IMG/VR virus record: IMGVR_UViG_3300017433_000001 | Coordinates: 1 to 55,598 of that record | DNA: 55,598 nt | Origin: a virus | Reading direction: 5' to 3' (one strand) | Shown here: one piece after another, positions 2,470 to 30,655 of the stretch | Numbering within the stretch: the first letter of the stretch is position 1 | Layout of the letters: each line of letters begins with the position of its first letter | Position numbers and translations under genes: made by a program | The notes under the pieces: model-generated | Databases searched by the model: none | What the model was told of the DNA's origin: nothing | The model's input: the letters and a program-made list of their open reading frames with translations, nothing else

Positions 2470-2723
2470 CCGAGATCATCGAACGCGTCGCCGACGTACT
2501 CCAATCTGCCACGGCGCTCGACCGTCCGGAAGCGATAACCCTGGCGCGCCGTACAATTAGCGCCATGCGCGAGCCAGACCGGGTCGTGGTCAAGGCCATG
2601 TGCCGGTCGCTTTACCCAGAATGCCGGCCCATGCCGGATCGGGTTGGAGCATCCGAAAAACACCGCATCCGGTGGCGGGCTGCCATCGACCGCATCGTTC
2701 GCGAGCCGGAGACCGTCGCATGA
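2466..2723 (+). CDS. Hypothetical protein (85 aa)
   Basis: ATGA overlaps on both sides. Protein-like composition. Confidence 0.65.
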   Translation: MTEIIERVADVLQSATALDRPEAITLARRTISAMREPDRVVVKAMCRSLYPECRPMPDRVGASEKHRIRWRAAIDRIVREPETVA

Positions 2724-5014
2724 GCACCACTCTCCCGTGGATCTTCGACCCCGCGATCCATCAGGTTCTCTCGAACGTCTCCGTGGCCCTGGATCTGGCG
2801 CAATCGGGCGTGGCGGTGTTTCCGTGCCAATCGGACAAGAGGCCGTTCCCTGGCCTATTCTGGCGCAAGCAGAGCACCACCGACACGCAGACCATCGAGC
2901 GGTGGTGGGAGCGGTGGCCCGACGCCATTCCGGCCATCGATCTCGCCAAGTCCGACTTCCTCGTCATCGACTGCGACGGCGCGGTGGGGATTGAGGACTG
3001 GCGGAAAGTTACAGACGGTCGCGCGCCCAACGCGCCCACCATTTCGACGCCGAATGCCGGGCAGCACGTCTATTTCCGGCGCGGCGGACGCCCTCTCGGA
3101 AACTCCACAGGCGGCCTGCCGGCCAAGCGAGACGGGGGCGGGCTCGATGTTCGCGGAGCCGGGGGCTACGTCATCGCCCCGTGCGCCACCCTGATCGATG
3201 GCCGGCGCTACGAGCCGAGCGAGATCAGCATCCACCACGCGGACGAAGCTCCGGACTGGCTGATCACGATCCTGGAAGGCCATCGCGAATTCGCCGTCAC
3301 GGTCACGCCGGGCGCCCCCGTTTCCGACGAGCGCAAGCGCGCCTACGGCGAGCGGGCTTTGCTGGAGGAAATGGCGACGCTGGCCCAGGCCGGTCCCGGT
3401 ACCCGGTCGAACGAGGCCAACCGCATCGCCTTCCGGATCGGCCAGCTCGTCGGGGGCGGCTGTCTGACGGAAGCGGAGGCGTACAGCCACCTACACAACG
3501 CGGCGGCGTCCTGGGGCATCCCAGCCAACGACAAGGCCCTGGGGCCGCGTGGGACGATTGCACGGGCCATCCGCGACGGCGCCCGCTCCCCGCGCTTCTG
3601 TCCGGACGATCTTCCCGAACCCGAGGTCGACGCCTACGCCCGCGCCTTACTGACGCCGAAACCCATTCACGTCGACGAAGACGGCGTCCTATTAGACGAA
3701 ACGGGTCAGCCACTCCGGCCCGTCGTGATCCCCGGTCAATTCGACTACCCGGACCACAAGCTCCAGGTCGGCGGTCTCGTCGGGGAGATCGCCGAATGGA
3801 TCATGCGGACCGCTATGTTTCCATGCCGGCTGTTTGCCGTTTCGGCCGCGCTGGCGGCGGTCGGCACCGTCGTCGGGCGACAGGTCTACACGGGCGTCCC
3901 ACGGGCCGGGACGGCGCTGTATTGGCTCACCATCGCGCCGACCGCAGGCGGCAAGGACCGGCCGCAGGAGGCGATCAAGCAGGCCCTGCAAGCCGCCGAT
4001 CTCGGCCACCTCGTGCGGACGTCGGTGTCGTCATCGGCCAAGCTCGGCCTGTCGCTGTTCGAGCAGCCCGTCCAGTGCCAGGTGATCGACGAGGTCGGCA
4101 AGGTGCTGCGCAAGTTCGTGTCGCGCAACGCCACGAGCCAGGAGATGAGCCTGCTGGACGACTATTGCTCGATCTGGGGGAAGAACCTCGGTTCGTTCGA
4201 GCCGGAGGGTGTCACCACCCGCGCCGATGTCTCTATTCGCCAGCCCTCACTCACGTTCTACGGCGCCACGACGCCGGTCAATTTTTACGAGCAGCTTCGG
4301 GCCGCCCAGGTCGCGGGTGGCTTCCTCAACCGCTTCCTCGTGATGCAGCGACACCAGCGCGTGCCGGAGAACCCCGCGATCCAGCCCGAAGACGGCGTGC
4401 CGGATATCATTGTGGATGGCCTGAGACGGCTGCACACGTGGCAGGACTGCGTCGCCGGCCGCCCATCGGATCAGGTGAAGGACGCGGCCATGCCGCCACT
4501 ACCGGTGGTGATCCCGGAGAGCGACGAGGCCGCTGCGCGGCTGGCTGAATGCCGCGCGAAGGCGCGTGAGATGATCGTGCGATCCGACGAGGAACCTATC
4601 CTGGAGGTCTACGCTCGCTCGGCCGAGATGGTGAAGCGCATGGCCCTGATCCTGGCCTGCGGCCGGCACTGGCGGGACATGAGCCGCTGCCGGATCGAGG
4701 CGTGCGATGTCGACTACGCCGCCGGGCTGGTCAATTGGTCCATGGACAGCTTCGTCCGGGGGCTGGGGCTCTACATGGCCGAGAACGAGCAACAGGGAAA
4801 TCAGAAGCGCGTCCTGGCGATCATACGAGCCGCCAAGGGCGGGTGCTGCACCCGGAATGAGCTTTACCGCAAGATCGACGGCAAGCTGACCGGCCGGGAG
4901 ATCCAGGCGATTATGGTGTCTCTGGTCGAGGCGGATTGGGTGGAGGTCGTGGTCGAGAAGCCTCCGGTCGGGTCGAAGGGAGGTCGGCCAAAAACGCTCT
5001 ATCGAGCAACATAG
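2720..5014 (+). CDS. Bifunctional primase-polymerase (Prim-Pol N-domain, PriCT-like middle, DUF3987-like C-terminal region)
   Basis: ATG 2720 (M41 of ORF 2600..5014) overlaps the upstream stop. Motifs: VAVFPCQSDKRP, LVIDCDG, GQHVYF and GGYVIAP. RSNEANRIAFRIGQLV resembles PriCT. Confidence 0.85.
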   Translation: MSTTLPWIFDPAIHQVLSNVSVALDLAQSGVAVFPCQSDKRPFPGLFWRKQSTTDTQTIERWWERWPDAIPAIDLAKSDFLVIDCDGAVGIEDWRKVTDGRAPNAPTISTPNAGQHVYFRRGGRPLGNSTGGLPAKRDGGGLDVRGAGGYVIAPCATLIDGRRYEPSEISIHHADEAPDWLITILEGHREFAVTVTPGAPVSDERKRAYGERALLEEMATLAQAGPGTRSNEANRIAFRIGQLVGGGCLTEAEAYSHLHNAAASWGIPANDKALGPRGTIARAIRDGARSPRFCPDDLPEPEVDAYARALLTPKPIHVDEDGVLLDETGQPLRPVVIPGQFDYPDHKLQVGGLVGEIAEWIMRTAMFPCRLFAVSAALAAVGTVVGRQVYTGVPRAGTALYWLTIAPTAGGKDRPQEAIKQALQAADLGHLVRTSVSSSAKLGLSLFEQPVQCQVIDEVGKVLRKFVSRNATSQEMSLLDDYCSIWGKNLGSFEPEGVTTRADVSIRQPSLTFYGATTPVNFYEQLRAAQVAGGFLNRFLVMQRHQRVPENPAIQPEDGVPDIIVDGLRRLHTWQDCVAGRPSDQVKDAAMPPLPVVIPESDEAAARLAECRAKAREMIVRSDEEPILEVYARSAEMVKRMALILACGRHWRDMSRCRIEACDVDYAAGLVNWSMDSFVRGLGLYMAENEQQGNQKRVLAIIRAAKGGCCTRNELYRKIDGKLTGREIQAIMVSLVEADWVEVVVEKPPVGSKGGRPKTLYRAT

Positions 5015-5022
5015 GCCCTTAG

Positions 5023-5046
5023 AACCCCGCTTCGGCGGGGTTTTTT
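5023..5046 (+). terminator. Rho-independent terminator closing the early/replication operon
   Basis: aaccccgc-ttcg-gcggggtt stem-loop followed by tttttt, starting 9 nt after the primase stop. Confidence 0.8.
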
Positions 5047-5116
5047 GTGCGCCCTTTTCGACCGGCAGGTAATGACGGAATTTCGTTTCGACGGGCGCTT
5101 CTGAATGGTCAAGCTT

Positions 5117-5296
5117 GGTTACGACCCCCCATTAAAACGGGTGCGACAAACCGTCAAAACCTACGAAGCCATCCTATTGATATATATAATAAAAAAACAT
5201 TTTTTTTATATTATAACGGTTATGGATGGTATGGTGTGTGTCTCTCTCTTTTTTCTCTCTTTTTTGCTCACTTACCTATAGGGGGGGGTCGTAACC
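5117..5296. repeat. AT-rich island bracketed by a perfect 14-bp inverted repeat (candidate origin/DUE, leader RNA element or foreign insert)
   Basis: GGTTACGACCCCCC at 5117-5130 and GGGGGGTCGTAACC at 5283-5296. The interior includes 36 nt with a single C (5181-5216) and a 25-nt pure pyrimidine run (5241-5265). Confidence 0.6.
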
Positions 5297-5454
5297 CCAA
5301 AACCCCTAATCCCCTGCGGATAGCCCCGAGCGGCCAGCCCCTATCCGGGCCGCGCCATGTTATACCGATACGTCTTCGGCATGGGCCTGTGCCGGTGACA
5401 TCTGGTCCCGACGACGCGGCGCCTGGCGGCCGGCGTCTCAGTCAGGAGCTGTCG

Positions 5455-5982
5455 ATGCCTTCGACCGAGAACGACAACGACATCCGCATTTGGATCGCCG
5501 CGTACACCGCGCCCAATTCCGAGATCGCGGTTCGCGATGCGATCACCGCCCTCGGCTACCCCGTCCTCCTTCCGACCGGCATGGTCGAGATGATGCACGC
5601 CCGCCGGAAGATGATGGTCGACCGGCCGGTCTTCCCCCGATACGTCTTCGTCGGGGTGCCGCATGGCCGGTCCTGGTATCCGCTCAAATCGGTCACAGGG
5701 GTCTCTGGAGTGCTTTCCTCGAACTCCGAGCCACAATCCCTCAACCCGCGCGCCGTGGCCCTTCTACGGGCCGCTATGGAGGCCGACGCCTTCACCGAGG
5801 AAAAGGCCGTGCCGTTCAAGGCCGGTGACAAGGTCGAGGTGCTGATCGGCCAGACGCCGGTCGAGGCGTTTGTCGAGAGCGTCACGCGCCTCCTTCCGGC
5901 TCAGCGCATCGACGTGATGTTCAAAATGTTCGGCAAGGAACACAGGCGCTCTGTGCCTGTTGACCAACTGCGCGCGGCGTAG
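5455..5982 (+). CDS. NusG/RfaH-like transcription antitermination factor (NGN + KOW)
   Basis: ATG 5455 sits after aggag. NGN pattern: W..A.T....E..V...L..LG..., RPVFPRYVFV, GVSGVL. KOW-like FKAGDKVEVLIG. First gene of the late block. Confidence 0.8.
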   Translation: MPSTENDNDIRIWIAAYTAPNSEIAVRDAITALGYPVLLPTGMVEMMHARRKMMVDRPVFPRYVFVGVPHGRSWYPLKSVTGVSGVLSSNSEPQSLNPRAVALLRAAMEADAFTEEKAVPFKAGDKVEVLIGQTPVEAFVESVTRLLPAQRIDVMFKMFGKEHRRSVPVDQLRAA

Positions 5983-6010
5983 TAAGCAAATCCATCTGCG
6001 GAGCAGTTGT

Positions 6011-6026
6011 GTTGCAAAATTGCAAC
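6011..6026. promoter_or_regulatory. Inverted repeat GTTGCAA-aa-TTGCAAC in the leader downstream of the NusG-like gene
   Basis: Perfect 7-bp arms with a 2-nt spacer, 29 nt after the NusG-like stop. Function unknown. Confidence 0.3.
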
Positions 6027-6288
6027 CACCTGTTCCGCGTGAGCCGTGGAGCAACGCTCCGGCAACCTTCTCAAAAGTTTCGCCGCCACGCAGCACACGA
6101 GTTCGATGCGGCAGGGGATGAACGAAAACCCTGCGGTATCTGGCGTAGGCGGCTCCTGAACCTTCGGTCAGTCCAGGGCCTGCGGACCAGAGTGGCACTA
6201 TGCACCAAGCCGCTTCGCCATCGGCTGTTGGGAATGAACCCAACCCGCATCGATCATTTCCACCCTGCCTGGATCGCAAGGAGAGGTG

Positions 6289-6507
6289 ATGAGCCCCAAG
6301 GTCTGGAAAGCTCGTCAGGCTCAGCCGATCGAAGAGCTGAGGCGCAAGGCTGACAAGGCCTGTCGTCGCGCCAACATCTGGACGGTTGAGGAACTGGACT
6401 ACGCCAAGGCGCATGGCCGGCTGATGGCCGCCTCGCTTGCCGAGATCTTCCGAAGTGCTCCCGCCCGCCCCAAACCCTCATCCGACCGTATGGCGGTGGG
6501 GGAGTAG
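6289..6507 (+). CDS. Hypothetical protein (72 aa)
   Basis: aaggagagg box ahead of ATG 6289 (GTG 6286 is an alternative). Charged, protein-like sequence. Confidence 0.6.
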   Translation: MSPKVWKARQAQPIEELRRKADKACRRANIWTVEELDYAKAHGRLMAASLAEIFRSAPARPKPSSDRMAVGE

Positions 6508-6510
6508 GGA

Positions 6511-6720
6511 TCAGTTTAACGGTTTTGAGTGCGCTCGGTCATAGGCGTCTTTGTAAAGACGATTCAGCATCGAGATCAGGGATGGCAAAACGTTTTGCCT
6601 ACATGTGATCGTTACCTCGTTTCCGTCCTTGTCGCTTAAGGAAAACTGAGCATCGCCGTCCGAGTCAATGACCTTGGGGGCGTAGATTTGATCAATGCGC
6701 AGTTCGGTCTTGGTGGGCAT
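6511..6720 (-). CDS. Hypothetical protein (69 aa), antisense moron inside the late operon
   Basis: ATG at 6720 preceded by aaaggaac. Visibly lower GC than its flanks. It is the only minus-strand gene between 5.4 and 22.8 kb. Confidence 0.55.
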   Translation of the reverse strand: MPTKTELRIDQIYAPKVIDSDGDAQFSLSDKDGNEVTITCRQNVLPSLISMLNRLYKDAYDRAHSKPLN

Positions 6721-6805
6721 CCTAGTTCCTTTCTTGCTCACGGGCAGCCTATCACAAGTGCTGCACCATTCGCATCCGTTGCGCTCCTAGCCGGCACTCA
6801 GAACA

Positions 6806-7105
6806 ATGGCTGAAACTCAAAACCTCAAGCCGTTCGCACCCGGCAAATCCGGCAACCCTGGCGGTCGCCCGAAAATCCCGCAGCATATCCGCGACATGGC
6901 TCGCGCCCTGACCGAGGAAGCCATCGGGACGGCAGCCGAGATCATGCGCAATCCGGCCGAGACCGGGTCGGCGCGGATGGCGGCTGTGAATGCCATCCTC
7001 GACCGTGGCTGGGGCAAGCCGTCTCAGCCGCTCGACGGTGACGGCGAGGGTGGTCCGATCAAGGTGCAAGCCATTGAGTGGCGCGTCGTCCGCCCTTCCG
7101 ATTGA
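6806..7105 (+). CDS. terS: Putative terminase small subunit (DUF5681-like)
   Basis: N-terminal KSGNPGGRPK motif, as recalled for small terminases. Lies immediately upstream of terL. Confidence 0.55.
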   Translation: MAETQNLKPFAPGKSGNPGGRPKIPQHIRDMARALTEEAIGTAAEIMRNPAETGSARMAAVNAILDRGWGKPSQPLDGDGEGGPIKVQAIEWRVVRPSD

Positions 7106-8438
7106 GATTGCCGAGGCGTTCGTTCCGCTTCTGGCACCCAAGCGATACAAGGGCGCGTATGGCGGGCGAGGGTCCGGCAAGTCGCACTTCTTCGGCGAGC
7201 AGCTGATCGCCCGGTGCTTTTCCGGCACGACCCGCGCCGTGTGCATCCGCGAGGTGCAGAACAGCCTCAAGGAGTCGGTCAAGCAGCTTCTCGCCGACAA
7301 GATCAGCAAGCTTGGCGTCGGCGCCTATTTCGAGATCCTTGAGAGCGAGATCCGTGGACCACACGGCTCGCTGATCATCTTCCGAGGGATGCAGAGCTAC
7401 AACGCCGACACGATCAAGTCGCTCGAAGGCTACGACATCGCGTGGGTGGAAGAGGCGCAATCGCTGTCCGCGCACTCGCTGCGGATGCTGCGTCCGACGA
7501 TCCGCAAGCCTGGGTCCGAGCTGTGGTTCTCGTGGAACCCGCGTTTCGATACCGACGCCATCGACAAGCTCGCGCGCGGCCCGAGCCCACCGAGCAATTC
7601 GGTGTTCATCGAGGTCAACTGGTACGACAACCCGTGGTTTCCGGCCGAGCTTCGGGACGAGAAGAACGACGATTACGCCGCTGATCAGGAACAGGCCAAC
7701 CACGTCTGGGGCGGCGGATATCAGGTCGTCACGGAAGGCGCCTACTACGCCAAGATGCTCGGGGAAGCCGAGCGGGCGGGCCGGATCGGCGACTTCCCGT
7801 ATCTGCCGAACGTCCCCGTCAAGACGGCCTGGGACATCGGCGTGGACGACTACACCGCCGTCTGGTTCATGCAGGACGACGGGCGCTCGGCCAGGGCCAT
7901 CGACTATTACGAGGTGAGCGGGGACGGCGCCGAACAGATCGTTCGGGCCTGCATGCCGGAACTGATCCCCGAGCCCGCCGAGCGGCTGGCAGGGCTCGCC
8001 GAGATCGGGCGCGTAAAGCCGTTCACCTACGGCCGGCACTTCCTGCCCCACGACGTGAACGTGCGGGAATGGGGCGGCGGGGCGCGGACGCGGTTTCAGA
8101 CGCTCATGGCGTTGGGCGTCCGTCCGATCCAGGCCGGCGCGCAACAGGGTGCGTCCGAGCGCATCAACGCGGTGCGGCGGGTCCTACCCATCGTATCGTT
8201 CAACAACACCAAGCGGGTGCAGATCGGTCTCTCGCGGCTTCGGCGCTACTCCCGGCGCTGGAACGACCAGATGCAGACCTATCAGACCCCGCTGCACGAC
8301 GAGAACAGCCACGGGGCCGACGCTTTTGGCGAGTGGGCCGTGAACTGCGGCATCCACCCGAAGCCTGCGGCGCCCGCGCCCAAACCCAAGACCGGCTATT
8401 CCTCGGCAACGGCGTCTCAGGGGTCATGGAGGGTTTGA
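7050..8438 (+). CDS. terL: Terminase large subunit (PBSX/Terminase_3-like)
   Basis: Walker A GGRGSGKS and Walker B DIAWVEEA, with a C-terminal nuclease-like half. The start is uncertain: GTG 7050 or TTG 7074, and the track ATG 6990 would overlap terS by 116 nt. Confidence 0.9.
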   Translation: MVRSRCKPLSGASSALPIEIAEAFVPLLAPKRYKGAYGGRGSGKSHFFGEQLIARCFSGTTRAVCIREVQNSLKESVKQLLADKISKLGVGAYFEILESEIRGPHGSLIIFRGMQSYNADTIKSLEGYDIAWVEEAQSLSAHSLRMLRPTIRKPGSELWFSWNPRFDTDAIDKLARGPSPPSNSVFIEVNWYDNPWFPAELRDEKNDDYAADQEQANHVWGGGYQVVTEGAYYAKMLGEAERAGRIGDFPYLPNVPVKTAWDIGVDDYTAVWFMQDDGRSARAIDYYEVSGDGAEQIVRACMPELIPEPAERLAGLAEIGRVKPFTYGRHFLPHDVNVREWGGGARTRFQTLMALGVRPIQAGAQQGASERINAVRRVLPIVSFNNTKRVQIGLSRLRRYSRRWNDQMQTYQTPLHDENSHGADAFGEWAVNCGIHPKPAAPAPKPKTGYSSATASQGSWRV

Positions 8439-9879: not shown

Positions 9880-11871
9880 ATGGCCCTTTCCCCCGCCCCT
9901 CAGGCCGCGCCAGCCATGGCCGCGCCGTACATGCCCATGGGCGTGCCGGCAGGGGTTGATGCCGTCGTGGTCGCCGTCGAACCGGAAGCTCCCAAGGGCG
10001 TCGGCCTAACTGAGCTTCTGCGTTGGTTCGACGCCTATCAGGACACCAAGACGGCCGAGATGAACGAGCAGCGCGAGGGGCGCCGCTACTATCACGGCAA
10101 GCAGTGGACGGATCAGGAAGAACGCGTCCTCAACGAGCGCAAACAGCCGCCGGTCACGAACAATCGCATCGCGCCAAAGATCGACGGCATCGTGGGCGTC
10201 GTCGTCCGCTTGCGCCAGGACCCGAAGGCCAGCCCCCGCAACGAGAAGCAGGCGGCCGGCGCCCACATCGGCACGGCGGCGGTGCGCGAGGTGCTGGACG
10301 AGAACCAGTGGGACGCACTCCAGGCCCAGGTCGCCCAGGATCTTGCCATCGACGGGCTCGGCGGCGTGGAGCGCGATGTTGAGCCGTCCAGCGACGGCCA
10401 GCCGAACGTCGTGCTGCGTCGTGTCGCTCCGGAGACCTATTTCTACGACCCCCGCTCGGTGAAGGCCGATTTCTCGGATGCCCGCTACCAGGGCGTCTAC
10501 AAGTGGATGGATCTGGACAGCGCCATCGAGATGATGCCGGACCGCGCCGAGGATCTGGAAGGCGCCATCGACCGGACGACGAGCAACACCGCCAACGGCC
10601 TGCAGGACTGGGACAAGCTCTGGTACGACAGCCGCCTGAAGCGCGTGAAGGTCGTGGAGATCTGGTATCGCCACAAGGGCGATTGGTGGTTCGCGATCCA
10701 CACGGGCGATCTGATCCTCAAGGAGGGCATGTCCCCCTACGCGGATCAGCGTGGCAAGACCCGTTGCCGGTACAACATGACGTCGGCGGGCGTCGATCAC
10801 GAGGGCAATCGCTACGGCTTCGTGCGCAACATGAAGTCGCCCCAAGACGAGATCAACCACCGCCGCTCGAAGCTCCTTCACATCCTGAACGTCAATCAGG
10901 TGATCTACGAGGACGGCGCGGTCGAGGACATCAACGACGCCCGCAAGCAGTTGGCCCGGCCGGACGGTGCGGTGAAGGTCAATCCGGGCGGCCAGCGGTT
11001 CGAGATCCGCGACCAGTCCCAGCAGATGCAGGGGCAGGCCGAGCTTTTGGCCGAGGCCAAGGCTGAAATCGAGAACTTCGGGCCGAACCAAGCGCTTCTA
11101 GGCTCCGGCGCGTCATCGGCCTCGGGCCGCGCGCAGGCCATGCAGCAACAGGCTGGCATCGCCCAGCTAGGCCCGTACTTCACCCGCTACAAGGGTTGGA
11201 AGCTCGACGTCTACCGCGCCGTATGGGCCGACGTGCAACTGATCTGGACCAACGAGCGGTTCATTCGCGTGGCCGGCGAGGACGAGGTGCAGTTCCTTCC
11301 CGTCAACACGATGGTGATGACGCCCGAAGGTCCGCGCATCGCCAACGCCATCGGCGAATTGGATCTCGATATCGTCATGGACGAGGGGCCGGACGTCGTC
11401 ACGTTGCAGGAAGACGTGCTTCAGATCGTGGACAGCATGGTCCAAAAGGGCGTGCTGCAAGGGCCGACTGCACTTAAAACGGTTGTTGAACTCGCCAATT
11501 TGCCGCCGTCCATCAAGCAAAAGCTGATGGCTCCGCCGCAGTCCGATCCGGCCCAGGCGCAGATGCAGCAGACCGCACAGCAACTCGAAATGCGGGGCGC
11601 AGCCGCCAAGATCGCGCTCACTGAGGCTCAGGCGCTCAAGGCGCAGGGCGATACCGAGTTGGCGCAGGCTGAGGCGGTCCATCGCTACGCTCAGGCGCAG
11701 AACGCTGGCTCGCTCGCCGATCAGCATTCGGTCAACACAGCCCGCGCGGTCGCCGACATTGCCCACAAGACGGCTCAGACCCGGAAGATGGGTGTGGAGA
11801 CGGCTCAGATGGAGATGGGCGCCCTTGGGACTCCTATCGCATCACAGGGCTATCCGGAGTTGGGGTTCTAA
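9880..11871 (+). CDS. Portal protein
   Basis: 663 aa. RRYYHGKQWTDQEERVLNERKQPPVTNNRIAPKIDGIVG is a portal-type N-terminal pattern. Lies between terL and the scaffold/capsid genes. Confidence 0.85.
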   Translation: MALSPAPQAAPAMAAPYMPMGVPAGVDAVVVAVEPEAPKGVGLTELLRWFDAYQDTKTAEMNEQREGRRYYHGKQWTDQEERVLNERKQPPVTNNRIAPKIDGIVGVVVRLRQDPKASPRNEKQAAGAHIGTAAVREVLDENQWDALQAQVAQDLAIDGLGGVERDVEPSSDGQPNVVLRRVAPETYFYDPRSVKADFSDARYQGVYKWMDLDSAIEMMPDRAEDLEGAIDRTTSNTANGLQDWDKLWYDSRLKRVKVVEIWYRHKGDWWFAIHTGDLILKEGMSPYADQRGKTRCRYNMTSAGVDHEGNRYGFVRNMKSPQDEINHRRSKLLHILNVNQVIYEDGAVEDINDARKQLARPDGAVKVNPGGQRFEIRDQSQQMQGQAELLAEAKAEIENFGPNQALLGSGASSASGRAQAMQQQAGIAQLGPYFTRYKGWKLDVYRAVWADVQLIWTNERFIRVAGEDEVQFLPVNTMVMTPEGPRIANAIGELDLDIVMDEGPDVVTLQEDVLQIVDSMVQKGVLQGPTALKTVVELANLPPSIKQKLMAPPQSDPAQAQMQQTAQQLEMRGAAAKIALTEAQALKAQGDTELAQAEAVHRYAQAQNAGSLADQHSVNTARAVADIAHKTAQTRKMGVETAQMEMGALGTPIASQGYPELGF

Positions 11872-27053: not shown

Positions 27054-27629
27054 ATGACGCACGCAATCCGCGCCGGCTCCGGCTGGGCGCTTCTCCCCTA
27101 TGGCGAGGACGTCACCTATCAGGGCGTCACGGCCTCCTACGCTACGGTCATGCTGTGGTCTGACGACGAGCGCGAGGCGTTCGGTGTCTACGTGGTTCCG
27201 GAGCCTGATGCGGCGCCGGAGGGGCAGATGGAGACGAGCCGCACGCTCGTGAGCCGCAGCAAGCGCCCGGTTTGGTCCGTCTCCTACCAGCCGGCACCAG
27301 ATCCCAAGCCGCCCACCGCACCCGACAACCCGACGCTCGGCGACTGGCGCGTGGGGCTCGTCCTCTGGAAGACGCCGGGCGGAAATCGCCGAGACGAGGT
27401 GCTTGCCAAGATCAAGGCGCTTCTCGACGCGGGGCACCCCCTCGGTCCTGTCGCCGACGAACGGGTGAACTATTCCAACAACGTGCTGCGGGCCGACCTC
27501 CTGGCGCTCAAGGACGCCGTGGGCTTCTCCGTCGAGGACATCGAGGAAAGCCTCTGGCGCGCGGCTCAGGTGCAGGCCGGCGATCTCTCCGGCGTCTGGC
27601 CGCTTCCCAACGACAAGGACACCCCATGA
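27054..27629 (+). CDS. Hypothetical protein (191 aa)
   Basis: Track ORF. Its stop overlaps the tailspike start. Confidence 0.65.
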   Translation: MTHAIRAGSGWALLPYGEDVTYQGVTASYATVMLWSDDEREAFGVYVVPEPDAAPEGQMETSRTLVSRSKRPVWSVSYQPAPDPKPPTAPDNPTLGDWRVGLVLWKTPGGNRRDEVLAKIKALLDAGHPLGPVADERVNYSNNVLRADLLALKDAVGFSVEDIEESLWRAAQVQAGDLSGVWPLPNDKDTP

Positions 27630-29725
27630 CCTCCGGTTTCGGCGGGCGCCTCGACGCGTCCTATCCCACCGATGTCCGCAACGGCGGCGGCATCCGCGTG
27701 GACAAGCAGGGGCTTGCCACCCGCATCGCCCTCGATCTGCGCCAGACCCAGCGCCTCACCACGATCCCGGCCGGCGGGCTGGTGCCGGTGCAGGACCCTG
27801 GAACGGGCCTCATCGGCGCGCTGCCGGTCACGGCGCTTCCCACGGCGCAGACCGGCGACGGGACGCAGACCAACACCAAGCTCGCGACCATGCCAGCGCG
27901 GACGTTCAAGGCCAACCTGTTGGGCTCCACGGCCCCGCCGCAGGACGTGAACTTCACCCAGGTTCTGGAGGCCCTCGGCATCACCTCGGGCGGATCGGTG
28001 GCGACCACGGCTGCGAACGTCTCTGTGGTCCCGCCCGCGAGCCAGGGCTACACCAACGTCCAGGGCGCCATCACGTCGATTGAGGGGCGGGTCGCCGCTG
28101 GCGTACCGATCACAGCCTCACAGATCACGGATAGCTCAACGTCCGGACGCTCCGTCCTGACCGGCACGGCCGCGCAGGCACGTGCCGCCCTTGGCATCGC
28201 ATTCGGCGTCACGGCCGGCACGTACGCAGCGGGTGACGATGCGCGGTTCGCGGCTATCGGCTCGAACGGCTCGGTGGACCCGAAAGCCTACGGCGCCAAG
28301 GGCGACGGCGTGACCGACGACAGCGCTGCGTGGCAGGCCGCAGCCAATACCGGAAAGACGATCACGCCGTCTGACGGCGACTACATCATCAACACCACGG
28401 TGACGCTGCCGGGGTTCTCTACGATTTTCCGGCCTGGGCACGGCCTCAACCGCAAAGTCATCATCCGCACCACGGCGAACGTCGACACCTTTGTCGCGAC
28501 CGGCACCGATGGCAGTATTTCGGGCGTCGCCTTCTACCACACCGGGAACGGGCGCTGTTTCAAGCAGGGTAATAACGCGTCCTGGCATATATTTAACTGC
28601 TACTTCAACGCCAACAACAACGGCTCCGTGCCGTGCGACATCATCAACACAAATGGCCCGTTGAGCCACTACCATCACAATGCGTTTGACAACTTCCGAA
28701 CTAACAACGACAGCTTCGCAATTGCTATCGACCGACCTGCAAACGAACCGATCCACTGCTACGAAAATCATGTCGATCAGAACTACTGTGGCGGGTTTGG
28801 CCCGTTCGTCTACGTCGGAAGTCGCGACGCGCGGACAAACTACAACGGCAATCAGTCCAAGCCCGAAGGCATCCACATCTCCTTCAACTCGACGCAGACG
28901 CGGAATTTCAGCGTCGTTGTCGAGTGCTGCCTTCTTCTCCGACTGACAGGCAACTCGTTCTGCATCGCGGCCGGAACGACGATGCTTATCCGTCCGAGCG
29001 GGCCTGGCATCCTCGATCTGCGCAGCACGTCGAACTGGTACGACGCTACGGATCAGTTCGTCGGCCCCGTCATCGGGCAGGACAGCGTCTTCGCCAACGG
29101 CCCCAATGCGGTGCTTAAGTTCGCTCGGTTCCAGGATTACATCTTCGGCGGCAAGTTCGGCTGCTCGTTCGACAGCTTGACCGATAACGTCGATTTTACC
29201 GGCAGCGTCTTCATTCAGATGACGGATACGGGGGCCATCTTCAACCAGTGCAAAAACGTCACCATCGGCGCGACTTTCGAGGGCTGCACCAGGTCGTTCG
29301 TCTGCATCGACGGCTCGGCCGGCGGACCGTTCTTCACCGGCCGGTGCGTGTTCGCCGGCAGCGGCGCCCCCGAGTTCTCCATGTCGGATCGTTCGAAACT
29401 GGTCGTCTCCTACGAGACGACCGGGTTCAAGCTTGCACGCAAATTCCCTTATCTGACGGGGACGGGCTCTTTCGTGGCGGCTGCGTCGGGCGCCGGTAAC
29501 TTTGTAGGCTTCATTCTGGTCCCCCATGGACTGGCGGGGACGCCAAACTTGAATAAATGTCACTGCACTCTGCAAGCAATTCCGTCGCAGTCGGGTGGCG
29601 CTGCGTTTCAAGGCGGGACCGCAACTTTCCTCTCCGCAGACGCCACGAACATCACCATGGCCGTCTACATCCTCGGTCTGAGTACGGCTGGCAACATAAT
29701 TTATAACATGGACGTAACAATTTAG
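27626..29725 (+). CDS. Tailspike with pectate-lyase-like beta-helix (putative polysaccharide depolymerase)
   Basis: ATGA overlap (M119 of ORF 27272..29725). KAYGAKGDGVTDDSAAWQAA motif, then Asn/Gly/Phe-rich beta-helix-type sequence. Confidence 0.85.
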   Translation: MTSGFGGRLDASYPTDVRNGGGIRVDKQGLATRIALDLRQTQRLTTIPAGGLVPVQDPGTGLIGALPVTALPTAQTGDGTQTNTKLATMPARTFKANLLGSTAPPQDVNFTQVLEALGITSGGSVATTAANVSVVPPASQGYTNVQGAITSIEGRVAAGVPITASQITDSSTSGRSVLTGTAAQARAALGIAFGVTAGTYAAGDDARFAAIGSNGSVDPKAYGAKGDGVTDDSAAWQAAANTGKTITPSDGDYIINTTVTLPGFSTIFRPGHGLNRKVIIRTTANVDTFVATGTDGSISGVAFYHTGNGRCFKQGNNASWHIFNCYFNANNNGSVPCDIINTNGPLSHYHHNAFDNFRTNNDSFAIAIDRPANEPIHCYENHVDQNYCGGFGPFVYVGSRDARTNYNGNQSKPEGIHISFNSTQTRNFSVVVECCLLLRLTGNSFCIAAGTTMLIRPSGPGILDLRSTSNWYDATDQFVGPVIGQDSVFANGPNAVLKFARFQDYIFGGKFGCSFDSLTDNVDFTGSVFIQMTDTGAIFNQCKNVTIGATFEGCTRSFVCIDGSAGGPFFTGRCVFAGSGAPEFSMSDRSKLVVSYETTGFKLARKFPYLTGTGSFVAAASGAGNFVGFILVPHGLAGTPNLNKCHCTLQAIPSQSGGAAFQGGTATFLSADATNITMAVYILGLSTAGNIIYNMDVTI

Positions 29726-29728
29726 TAT

Positions 29729-30655
29729 TCATGGATTGTAATCAGGGTTCATGCGGAAAAATTCATCTGCTCCGTAGATATTACCTTGATAGTCTATCAT
29801 TTCTCCTGCCCACAACGGCCAGCCGGCGAAATCGTGGCCAGCCCTATCAGCTCGCCACATCTCAACCACCTTCTCGGCCCGCTGTTGATTGGCGACGAAT
29901 TCATAGTCGCGGCAGGGTGCCCTCAGAAGAGGGTCATCGGGCGGGAACCTAGGGCCTTTCTGGAGCAAGTACGGCTCGAAGCCTGCCATATCGGCCACCC
30001 AAGAGAACCCGCCTTCGAAGAAGTATCGCGAGACTCCTGTCCCCTCGATAAGATTTTTCGTAAAAAAGCTTTCGGCGGCACTGGCTAAGAAGTTGCGTAA
30101 AGCAGTTCCGGTCATCCCGAAAAATGTAGCGTATGGAAAGATCCCGACCGGAGGGTACAAAGCCGGAAAGATCCGGCGAAGATAATCGACCGCCTCGCTT
30201 GATCTGCTTGTTGCAAGCATCGGGAGGGCACAGAACGTGCCGTGTCGTGTCGGATCGCAAAATGTCTCCACTTCGCTCCGGCGAGACCAGAACTCTCGCT
30301 CCATCACCTCTCGCAACCCATCGGTGTGCCGAAACGCGTCGTGGGTCGCCCCCTTTGTGTGGCCAAACCAGTAATAGTCGTGCTGCGCGCGCGTATTACG
30401 AAGCGTTCGTAGGGCGGACTGAAACCCCGAAACATCGGAGTTTACGACGAGGCGGTCGGGCGTTTCGCAGATGACGATGTCAAGATCTGCGTCGGCTAAA
30501 CTCGCGTGCCAACTGCGAGATGAACCGGAATTGATGCCAACATAGATCGTGCAGTCGCGGAACCGTCGCTGGAAAAGGTCGATGTAATAGGCGCCTACAT
30601 CTCTTGCCACTTCGGTGTCAGGAACGAAGGAAGAAAAAACAACAGCGTGCCGCAT
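29729..30655 (-). CDS. Hypothetical protein (308 aa), low-GC moron convergent with the tailspike
   Basis: Clean ORF with protein-like, Phe/Tyr/Trp-rich composition. I recognise no motif. Confidence 0.75.
   Translation of the reverse strand: MRHAVVFSSFVPDTEVARDVGAYYIDLFQRRFRDCTIYVGINSGSSRSWHASLADADLDIVICETPDRLVVNSDVSGFQSALRTLRNTRAQHDYYWFGHTKGATHDAFRHTDGLREVMEREFWSRRSEVETFCDPTRHGTFCALPMLATSRSSEAVDYLRRIFPALYPPVGIFPYATFFGMTGTALRNFLASAAESFFTKNLIEGTGVSRYFFEGGFSWVADMAGFEPYLLQKGPRFPPDDPLLRAPCRDYEFVANQQRAEKVVEMWRADRAGHDFAGWPLWAGEMIDYQGNIYGADEFFRMNPDYNP

Follow-up and report, generated by a model that had tools for sequence, protein, structure and literature searches.

The AT-rich island that follows the primase-helicase gene in the DNA analyzed here (55,598 nt of a viral genome, below called the window) is probably the cognate replication origin of a temperate phage of the Methylobacterium type, extending from approximately position 5056 to 5310. 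An earlier note on this DNA had listed a phage replication origin or DNA-unwinding element beside the primase gene as one of several possible readings. This reading is supported by the conservation of the island beside a family of primase-helicase genes, by the co-variation of its repeats with the winged helix of the encoded proteins and by its joint recombination with the helicase half of the gene. Together with the anatomy of the island itself, these observations carry the argument.

The genes and signals around the island are the following.

527-2137: DEAD/ResIII helicase gene, upstream of the island.
2134-2469: DUF6511 gene, upstream of the island.
2600-5014, plus strand: primase-helicase gene, encoding a Prim-Pol domain (AEP), a DUF3987 domain (MCM-like) and a C-terminal winged helix, according to Pfam, PHROG and a fold model.
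5021-5047, plus strand: terminator-like hairpin CCCCGC-TTCG-GCGGGG-TTTTTTGTG followed by a T-run, closing the replication operon.
5455-5982, plus strand: NusG-like gene (Pfam NusG 7.5e-13, PHROG transcription antiterminator), a neighbor outside the element.
6990-8438: large terminase gene TerL, downstream, about 1.5 kb from the island.
9880-11871: P22-like portal gene, downstream.

The primase-helicase matches the Pfam families Prim-Pol (1.7e-26) and DUF3987 (1.5e-12) and is classified as DNA primase by PHROG; the true start of the gene probably lies near 2720. The hairpin at 5021-5047 is evident on direct reading and was not listed by a simple consensus terminator scan. Weak Rfam matches at 5021-5046 involve those parts of RsmY and istR that form the terminators, and equivalent hairpins are present immediately 5′ of the islands in five of the related loci discussed below (L001, L005, L163, L238, L239). 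Both the reading of the sequence and the domain matches place the island between this terminator and the NusG-like gene, as described earlier. The open reading frame 5047-5982, which crosses the island, had been dismissed as a product of chance, and rightly so. The NusG-like frame opens at ATG 5455, with AGGAG ahead of it, and the Pfam NusG match begins at residue 13 of the protein starting there, so the longer frame is a chance in-frame extension in the upstream direction. A search of IMG/VR with the NusG-like protein retrieved no relatives, a distant-mode search of GenBank phage DNA with positions 4000-7000 of the window gave no match, and no tRNA or tmRNA was found at the island.

Within the island, the following features can be distinguished.

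5056-5096, plus strand: direct repeats TTTCGACCGGC (5056-5066) and TTTCGACGGGC (5086-5096), 30 nt apart, degenerate iteron-like copies.
5117-5130, plus strand: left arm GGTTACGACCCCCC of the 14-nt inverted repeat, proposed left iteron.
5144-5167, minus strand: CGACAAACCGTCAAAACC, immediately to the left of the AT core; read on the minus strand, it contains GGTTTTGACGG and GGTTTGTCG, iteron-like elements in inverted orientation.
5178-5217, no strand: AT-rich near-palindromic core TTGATATATATAATAAAAAAACATTTTTTTTATATTATAAC, proposed DNA-unwinding element.
5218-5240, plus strand: C-free G/T-rich tract with GGTGTGTG at its 3′ end, recognized by reading the sequence and by composition.
5241-5265, plus strand: pyrimidine mirror and tandem repeat of 25 nt, formed by 2.1 copies of the 11-nt unit TCTCTCTTTTT.
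5275-5296, minus strand: CCTATAGGGGGGGG motif, with the right-hand arm of the 14-nt inverted repeat after it at 5283-5296; this arm faces the core and is the proposed right iteron.

The composition of this region is exceptional for the genome. Measured over 90-nt stretches, the window has a mean G+C content of 64.8% with a standard deviation of 6.2%, and its minimum of 23.3%, about 6.6 standard deviations lower, is located at 5176-5265. The second-lowest stretch has 32% G+C and is located at 29693-29782; it was considered as a related element and ruled out, being an unrelated junction of convergent genes. The compositional claims of the earlier note were borne out by measurement: 5181-5270, estimated there at about 26% G+C, has 25.6%; the 36-nt tract with a single C (5181-5216) indeed has one C and zero G; the AT core is near-palindromic, with arms at 5183-5197 and 5201-5215 that are 87% complementary; no C occurs in the G/T-rich tract; and the pure pyrimidine run of 25 nt is present at 5241-5265. 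The term triplex-prone, also used there, suits the mirror-repeat pyrimidine tract as a description but does not name a function. The AT core additionally holds a perfect TATAAT hexamer at 5186-5191.

To place the island in a wider context, it was compared with 37 non-redundant loci of 4 to 9 kb that carry primase homologues with 24-83% identity (designated here by L and a number). These homologues were taken from IMG/VR, GTDB genomes and metagenomes, and those of M. durans and M. persicinum were included. The closest GTDB matches to the primase come from Methylobacterium planeticum (61%) and then M. soli; as the closest homologues in genomes belong to Methylobacterium, the host clade is probably this genus. 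The 80-nt stretch with the lowest G+C content of the whole locus was found 0-600 nt past the primase stop codon in 23 of the 37 loci, while approximately 3 would be expected by position alone. It was found 600-2000 nt past the stop codon in a further nine loci, which have extra genes inserted there. In the L142/L191/L204 clade, the island is present just upstream of the primase gene.

L001 and L002, the closest relatives with respect to the primase (83 and 76% identity), have an island of the same type directly past the stop codon, followed by different downstream genes. The island is directly 5′ of a NusG-like gene in the window, L003, L004, L165, L238 and L239, it lies one gene upstream of such a gene in L005 and L169, and it has no adjacent NusG-like gene in L001, L002 and L142. 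In Methylobacterium prophages, inserted genes are found between the primase gene and the island, and not between the island and the NusG-like gene.

In an alignment of the islands, the AT core is the best-conserved block. It is near-identical in L001 and is recognizable even in L142, despite a primase identity of only 27%. A search of IMG/VR with a degenerate pattern of the core recovered L001, L002 and L003, as well as one new locus, L142. The symmetry of the core is preserved in relatives by two-sided changes from AT to GC in three pairs. The degree of sequence conservation in the core exceeds what a simple unwinding element would need. The tracts next to the core are enriched as well: GTGTGTG or CACACAC occurs in 6 of the 37 islands, compared to 0.012 occurrences per 400 nt in the remainder of these loci (approximately 13-fold), and CTCTCT or AGAGAG occurs in 14 of the 37, compared to 0.097 per 400 nt (approximately 4-fold). 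Judged by this comparison, the AT-rich island is a conserved module that accompanies this primase-helicase family.

The islands of the relatives each have their own short repeat, with direct and inverted copies that flank the palindrome of TATATA, A-run and T-run. The number of copies reaches eight, in both orientations. To quantify this, 8-mers occurring at least three times, with the two strands taken together, were counted in each island and in control stretches of 400 nt from the same locus. In 21 of the 37 loci, the island exceeds every control stretch in such thrice-repeated 8-mers. The repeats differ between loci as follows.

L002: GGGGGTTTTGTCGG.
L003, L163 and L238: GGTTTTTRCC.
L004, L167, L168 and L186: CGGTTGTCA.
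L169: GGTTATTC.
L177 and L178: TTGAACAA.
L180 and L181: GTGAAGACTG.
L183: CACACTCGA.
L142: GTAAATTTTAC.

In the window, the repeats are few and degenerate, with two perfect copies only and no 8-mer present at least three times in the island. The perfect copies are the arms of the 14-nt inverted repeat described earlier, GGTTACGACCCCCC at 5117-5130 and GGGGGGTCGTAACC at 5283-5296, which are 152 nt apart. This pair is the sole perfect inverted repeat of at least 13 nt at a spacing of 20-200 nt in the window; when the whole window was simulated with a first-order Markov model, only 7% of the simulated sequences contained any 14-nt inverted repeat at this spacing. No further copy of its sequence exists in the window, with up to two mismatches allowed. 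Since the islands of the relatives carry locus-specific repeats, the 14-nt inverted repeat can be regarded as the clearest such pair of the window, and the case for iterons in the window rests partly on the relatives.

Besides this pair, weaker copies can be discerned. The sequence TTWCGACS, a motif chosen post hoc, is common to both direct repeats (5056 and 5086) and the arms of the inverted repeat, and 4 of its 12 matches in the 55.6-kb window are located within 5056-5294. A further inverted pair has its arms at 5067-5085 and 5144-5162. To the left of the core, three forward copies of TTWCGACS (5056, 5086, 5119) are accompanied by inverted TGACGG and GTCG elements, and to the right, one clear repeat copy is present (5283-5296, inverted). 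Elements of these flanks also recur in relatives. In the alignment, the AAAACCTCC-like block at 5144-5167 is the best-conserved flank block in L002, L003 and L163, and the TATAGGGGGG / GGGGGTATATA motif to the right of the core is also found in L001, L167, L168, L175 and L176. Even L001 lacks the exact 14-nt inverted repeat, which fits a set of element-specific binding sites and not a conserved stem.

A protein that could recognize such sites is encoded directly upstream. Published work describes DUF3987 as an MCM-like helicase of phages that carries a wHTH at its C-terminus and is often fused to AEP primases (PMC4889955). In an AF2 model of the C-terminal half of the primase-helicase, the ATPase domain is followed by a winged helix with the order α1-β1-α2-α3-β2-β3. 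The homologue search yielded only 10 relatives, so that the model was built on a shallow 10-sequence alignment; its pLDDT is 74 overall and 81-87 over the last 75 residues. The top Foldseek matches of the model are MCM and ORC subunits, and its C-terminus is matched by a PadR winged helix (TM 0.57, rmsd 2.2). The picture from the model and from Foldseek agrees with the published description of DUF3987 (PMC4889955). Comparison of the primase with PDB by phmmer and by profile search gave no match, Rep structures included, and the link to MCM and ORC comes from fold comparison only.

Among close relatives, the protein varies most in its final 75 residues or so, which would form this winged helix, and this variation parallels that of the repeats. 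Between loci sharing a repeat, the winged helix and the helicase domain show 83 and 79% identity, respectively, for L003 and L238, 72 and 67% for L004 and L186, and 71 and 82% for L177 and L178. Between loci with different repeats, the winged helix has diverged 15-27 percentage points beyond the helicase domain, as in the comparisons of the window with L001 (61% for the winged helix versus 87% for the helicase domain) and with L003 (57 versus 77%). In these pairwise comparisons, the repeat class is better tracked by winged-helix identity than by helicase identity.

The recombination history of the loci points in the same direction. Alignment of the DNA of L003 and L004 shows 82% identity for the Prim-Pol portion of the gene and 91% for the NusG-like region, while the helicase/winged-helix half and the island between them cannot be aligned, with the right breakpoint just past the last repeat. 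In addition, the NusG-like proteins of the window and L165 are 70% identical, whereas the primases are only 43% identical and the repeats differ. This mosaic and the contrast with L165 indicate that the island belongs to the replication module, and more precisely to its helicase/winged-helix part. By the evidence of these alignments, the island and the helicase/winged-helix half of the gene are exchanged together, independently of the NusG-like gene.

From these comparisons, a mechanism can be proposed. The upstream-encoded primase-helicase would bind short phage-specific repeats by means of its C-terminal winged helix; the bound repeats would include both arms of the inverted pair GGTTACGACCCCCC, along with weaker copies of the TTTCGACSGGC and TGACGG type. 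These repeats flank a 36-bp A/T palindrome, predicted to be by far the least stable duplex of the genome. Melting of this palindrome would allow the MCM-like helicase to load itself, and the Prim-Pol domain would then prime on the exposed strands, with the GTGTGTG and pyrimidine tracts next to the core as candidate priming or loading signals. It is from sequence data that we infer binding, melting, helicase loading, priming and origin activity at the island. General origin signals were searched for as well. Along the window, the cumulative GC and AT skew reflects the orientation of the genes and does not point to an origin. Five matches to the DnaA box (TTATCCACA-like, at most one mismatch) are present in the window, none of them in 5000-5400, and the exact IHF consensus is absent from the whole window. 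A sequence YAA-N4-TTGAT-W, noticed by eye, abuts the core in L001, and versions with one mismatch are present in the window, L002 and L163; no use is made of it here.

The strongest rival to the origin is a role as late promoter or as leader of the NusG-like gene. According to this explanation, the island is the promoter or regulatory region of a late operon that starts with the NusG-like gene and continues with the terminase; the AT core would be a promoter or UP-like element and the repeats would be operators, instead of or besides an origin. The location fits, as the island is at the boundary of the replication and late modules, directly 5′ of the NusG-like gene in six loci including the window, and keeps this adjacency when morons enter Methylobacterium prophages. 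Moreover, the terminator 5′ of the island implies that the downstream genes need their own promoter. In L003 and L004, the common sequence starts only about 30 nt ahead of the NusG-like start codon, which means that a NusG promoter would be located in the island or next to it, and a perfect TATAAT is available at 5186-5191. However, a scan of 4500-6500 for sigma-70-type promoters came up empty, and islands without a neighboring NusG-like gene exist in L001, L002 and L142. The repeats, furthermore, co-vary with the winged helix of the primase, and it is the helicase half rather than the NusG-like gene that they are exchanged with; for the window and L165, NusG-like proteins of 70% identity go together with primases of 43% identity and different repeats. 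On balance, this explanation is distinctly unlikely as an account of the island, and the island could also combine an origin with a promoter or other regulatory function. The suggestion in the earlier note of a leader or recruitment site for the NusG-like protein is not supported in view of the same observations, i.e., the islands that lack a NusG neighbor (L001, L002, L142) and the absence of co-variation with NusG.

A second alternative is that the island is a packaging site (pac or cos) for the downstream terminase, in which the repeats would serve as binding sites of the small terminase. The island is indeed located upstream of the packaging module with TerL (6990-8438), the order primase, island, NusG, TerL is also found in L169, and repeats combined with bent AT-rich DNA are an architecture like that of lambda cosB. 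This explanation is nevertheless very improbable. There is no TerL within about 4 kb downstream of the island in L001 and L002 and none near the island of L142, and in the L142 clade the island lies 5′ of the primase gene. The repeats co-vary with the winged helix of the primase, and the P22-like portal suggests headful packaging, for which pac is usually located inside or beside the small terminase gene.

The island could also act as RNA, either as a structured non-coding RNA or as a leader transcript in which the 14-bp stem would be the closing one. For the plus strand of 5105-5310, folding gives -58.5 kcal/mol, with z = -3.7 relative to shuffled sequences; the inverted repeat closes the stem, and it is because of this repeat that the single-sequence fold outperforms the shuffles. 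This possibility is nonetheless extremely remote. Rfam has no match at its gathering score, only the weak terminator-hairpin matches at 5021-5046, the closing stem is not conserved in L001, the closest relative, and the RNAalifold consensus of five relatives reaches only -12 kcal/mol with an unfavorable covariation term of +2.5. In addition, up to eight repeat copies in both orientations, as seen in relatives, suit protein-binding sites and not one stem. The structured 5′ leader considered in the earlier note is not supported, given the lack of an Rfam match and the weak consensus fold.

Finally, a captured foreign or MITE-like insertion, likewise raised earlier, or an attP site can hardly be credited even though inverted repeats bound the island and its composition is atypical of the genome, as copies sought elsewhere were not found (none in the window at up to two mismatches, no IMG/VR match of the inverted-repeat pattern, no match of the island in plasmid DNA or phage records) and homologous islands occupy the same, syntenic position in diverged relatives. 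The attP variant was ruled out separately: the island is intact inside the integrated prophages L238 and L239 (on Methylobacterium contigs of 6.8 and 5.2 Mb), where attP would be split.

The preferred reading as a replication origin would be of interest for several reasons. DUF3987 (MCM-like) helicases fused to archaeo-eukaryotic-type primases are the predicted replicative enzymes of many phages (PMC4889955), and in the literature examined no description was found of cis-acting origins for phage replicases of this little-studied DUF3987/AEP type. The island is most likely an element of a known type, in phages for which such an origin had not been described before. The origin reading places the probable start of replication in this genome, and it would account for the odd AT-rich island and the spurious open reading frame. 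The island and its approximately 30 counterparts, which share the architecture and differ in their repeats, form a set of testable origin candidates. The pairing of winged-helix variants with repeat sequences would, moreover, offer a natural specificity series for the recognition and opening of DNA by an MCM-like helicase of bacterial viruses.

That the island is more than a generic origin of iterons and an unwinding element is unlikely. In this extended version, the conserved palindrome, the (GT)n and (CT)n tracts and the G-run could be a family-wide loading or priming signal for the Prim-Pol/MCM-like core, in analogy to the GTG that the pRN1 primase requires. If true, it would define how the DUF3987 helicases of phages load and at which site the first primer is synthesized. 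A separate possibility is that origin firing activates transcription of the adjacent NusG-like gene, a late antiterminator, and this would couple replication to late expression.

Among known systems, the origins of SaPIs and related PICIs offer the closest analogy, and the island may work like a SaPI-type origin without being related to it in sequence. SaPI origins are situated directly 3′ of the rep gene and have an AT-rich center with iterons pointing in opposite directions on either side, which are bound by the C-terminal winged helix of Rep (PMC9371898). The position and the AT-rich center are the same here, with the stop codon of the initiator-helicase gene at 5014 and the island at 5056-5310. 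Element-specific short repeats in opposite orientation on both sides are clearly present in L002, L003, L004, L168, L169 and L174; in the window, the right side has a single clear copy. SaPI and PICI initiators are self-loading hexameric helicases with a C-terminal winged helix, sometimes fused to a primase (PMC9371898), and the present primase-helicase likewise combines a helicase domain and a C-terminal winged helix, as indicated by the DUF3987 match and the AF2 model. However, several differences exist. No sequence relationship was detectable by phmmer or by PDB profile search, and the helicase is an MCM-like DUF3987 protein instead of a SaPI Rep. The repeats are 9-14 nt long, compared to the penta- and hexanucleotides of SaPIs, and the island has an additional conserved palindrome of A-run and T-run, GT and CT tracts and a G-run. 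Lastly, the element belongs to a full temperate phage with a probable alphaproteobacterial host and not to a satellite.

Two other replicons have initiators of a similar layout, and, as for SaPI Rep, phmmer and PDB profile searches found no sequence homology of the primase-helicase to either of these, ORF904 of pRN1 and the alpha protein of P4. [quoted passage not shown] ORF904 has the same order of functions (prim-pol, helicase, winged helix), the non-coding region 3′ of its gene is implicated as origin, and its GTG motif can be set beside the GTGTGTG tracts enriched in the islands. In contrast, pRN1 is archaeal, its helicase belongs to superfamily 3, and neither iterons nor an AT-rich element can be discerned in the plasmid. 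P4 alpha combines a primase, a helicase and a C-terminal winged-helix initiator that binds repeated short origin sites, as outlined in part in PMC2777425. It differs in having a primase of the DnaG/TOPRIM type and a superfamily 3 helicase. P4 moreover uses two separated cis sites, ori and crr, whereas here a single cluster is present with an inverted repeat that has no second copy.

The general logic is also that of the iteron plasmids pPS10, RK2, F, P1 and pSC101, in which a winged-helix initiator is reported to act on iterons beside an AT-rich unwinding element (PMC4081077; PMC4980987). While iterons, winged-helix initiator and AT-rich element would thus be shared, the plasmid origins make use of the DnaA and DnaB/DnaC proteins of the host. 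The island here has no DnaA boxes, and its proposed initiator itself carries both the helicase and the primase.

The core of the putative replication origin is an A-run/T-run palindrome (TATATAATAAAAAA..TTTTTTT.TAT) that is recognisably alike in the window (5178-5217), in L142 (805-850) and in the islands of L191 and L204. The loci having this palindrome in common encode primases that are only about 27% identical, and their iterons, the locus-specific short repeats around the core, are unrelated. The conservation of the core palindrome is greater than a generic unwinding element would need. In addition, a CAAAACC(T/C) / AAAACCTCC motif occurs as a direct repeat, with one copy on either side of the core, at an almost constant spacing of 136-142 nt in the three loci listed here:
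Window, 5157-5164 and 5299-5306: motif copies
L002, 5335 and 5471: motif copies
L003, 6135 and 6277: motif copies

In the clade of L142, the island precedes the primase gene and occupies the intergenic region between divergent genes. A 43-bp unit (CCGGCGCGCGCAACACATTTTCGGGGCGCGCAGTTTATTTGGT) adjoins the AT island of L142 itself, where it is present twice as a perfect tandem duplication (668-753).

Mosaicism was observed between two Methylobacterium prophages, L003 (2899-6322) and L004 (2898-6398), when both loci were compared. The left breakpoint is located within the primase gene, close to where the Prim-Pol domain gives way to the helicase domain (around L003:3978), and the right one approximately 30-60 nt past the island. 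The helicase/winged-helix half has been swapped together with the putative origin, while the N-terminal primase domain has been retained. Small additional genes are also found in Methylobacterium prophages, between the primase stop codon and the unit formed by terminator and island:
L238, 4861-5691: inserted genes, including a Fic-domain gene
L239, 4809-5615: inserted genes
L003, 5297-5909: inserted genes, including reverse-strand ORFs
The terminator hairpin still adjoins the island.

Elsewhere in the window, the second-lowest G+C stretch (29693-29782, 32% G+C) is the junction between two convergent genes:
27272-29725: probable tail fibre or spike gene, whose 817-aa product has a weak pectate-lyase-like match
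29729-30655, reverse strand: 308-aa ORF of lower G+C, without Pfam match, possibly a moron

The NusG-like gene is separated from the large terminase gene by approximately 1 kb (5983-6989) in which Pfam recognises no ORF and the G+C content falls to about 50% at 6500-6700. The small terminase gene and the pac site, both expected within 5983-6989, were not found there. The large terminase subunit belongs to Terminase_3, and the portal gene is located further downstream:
9880-11871: P22-like portal protein (Pfam, 1.6e-105)
Since a P22-like portal and a Terminase_3 large subunit occur together, the gene content suggests headful packaging in this phage.
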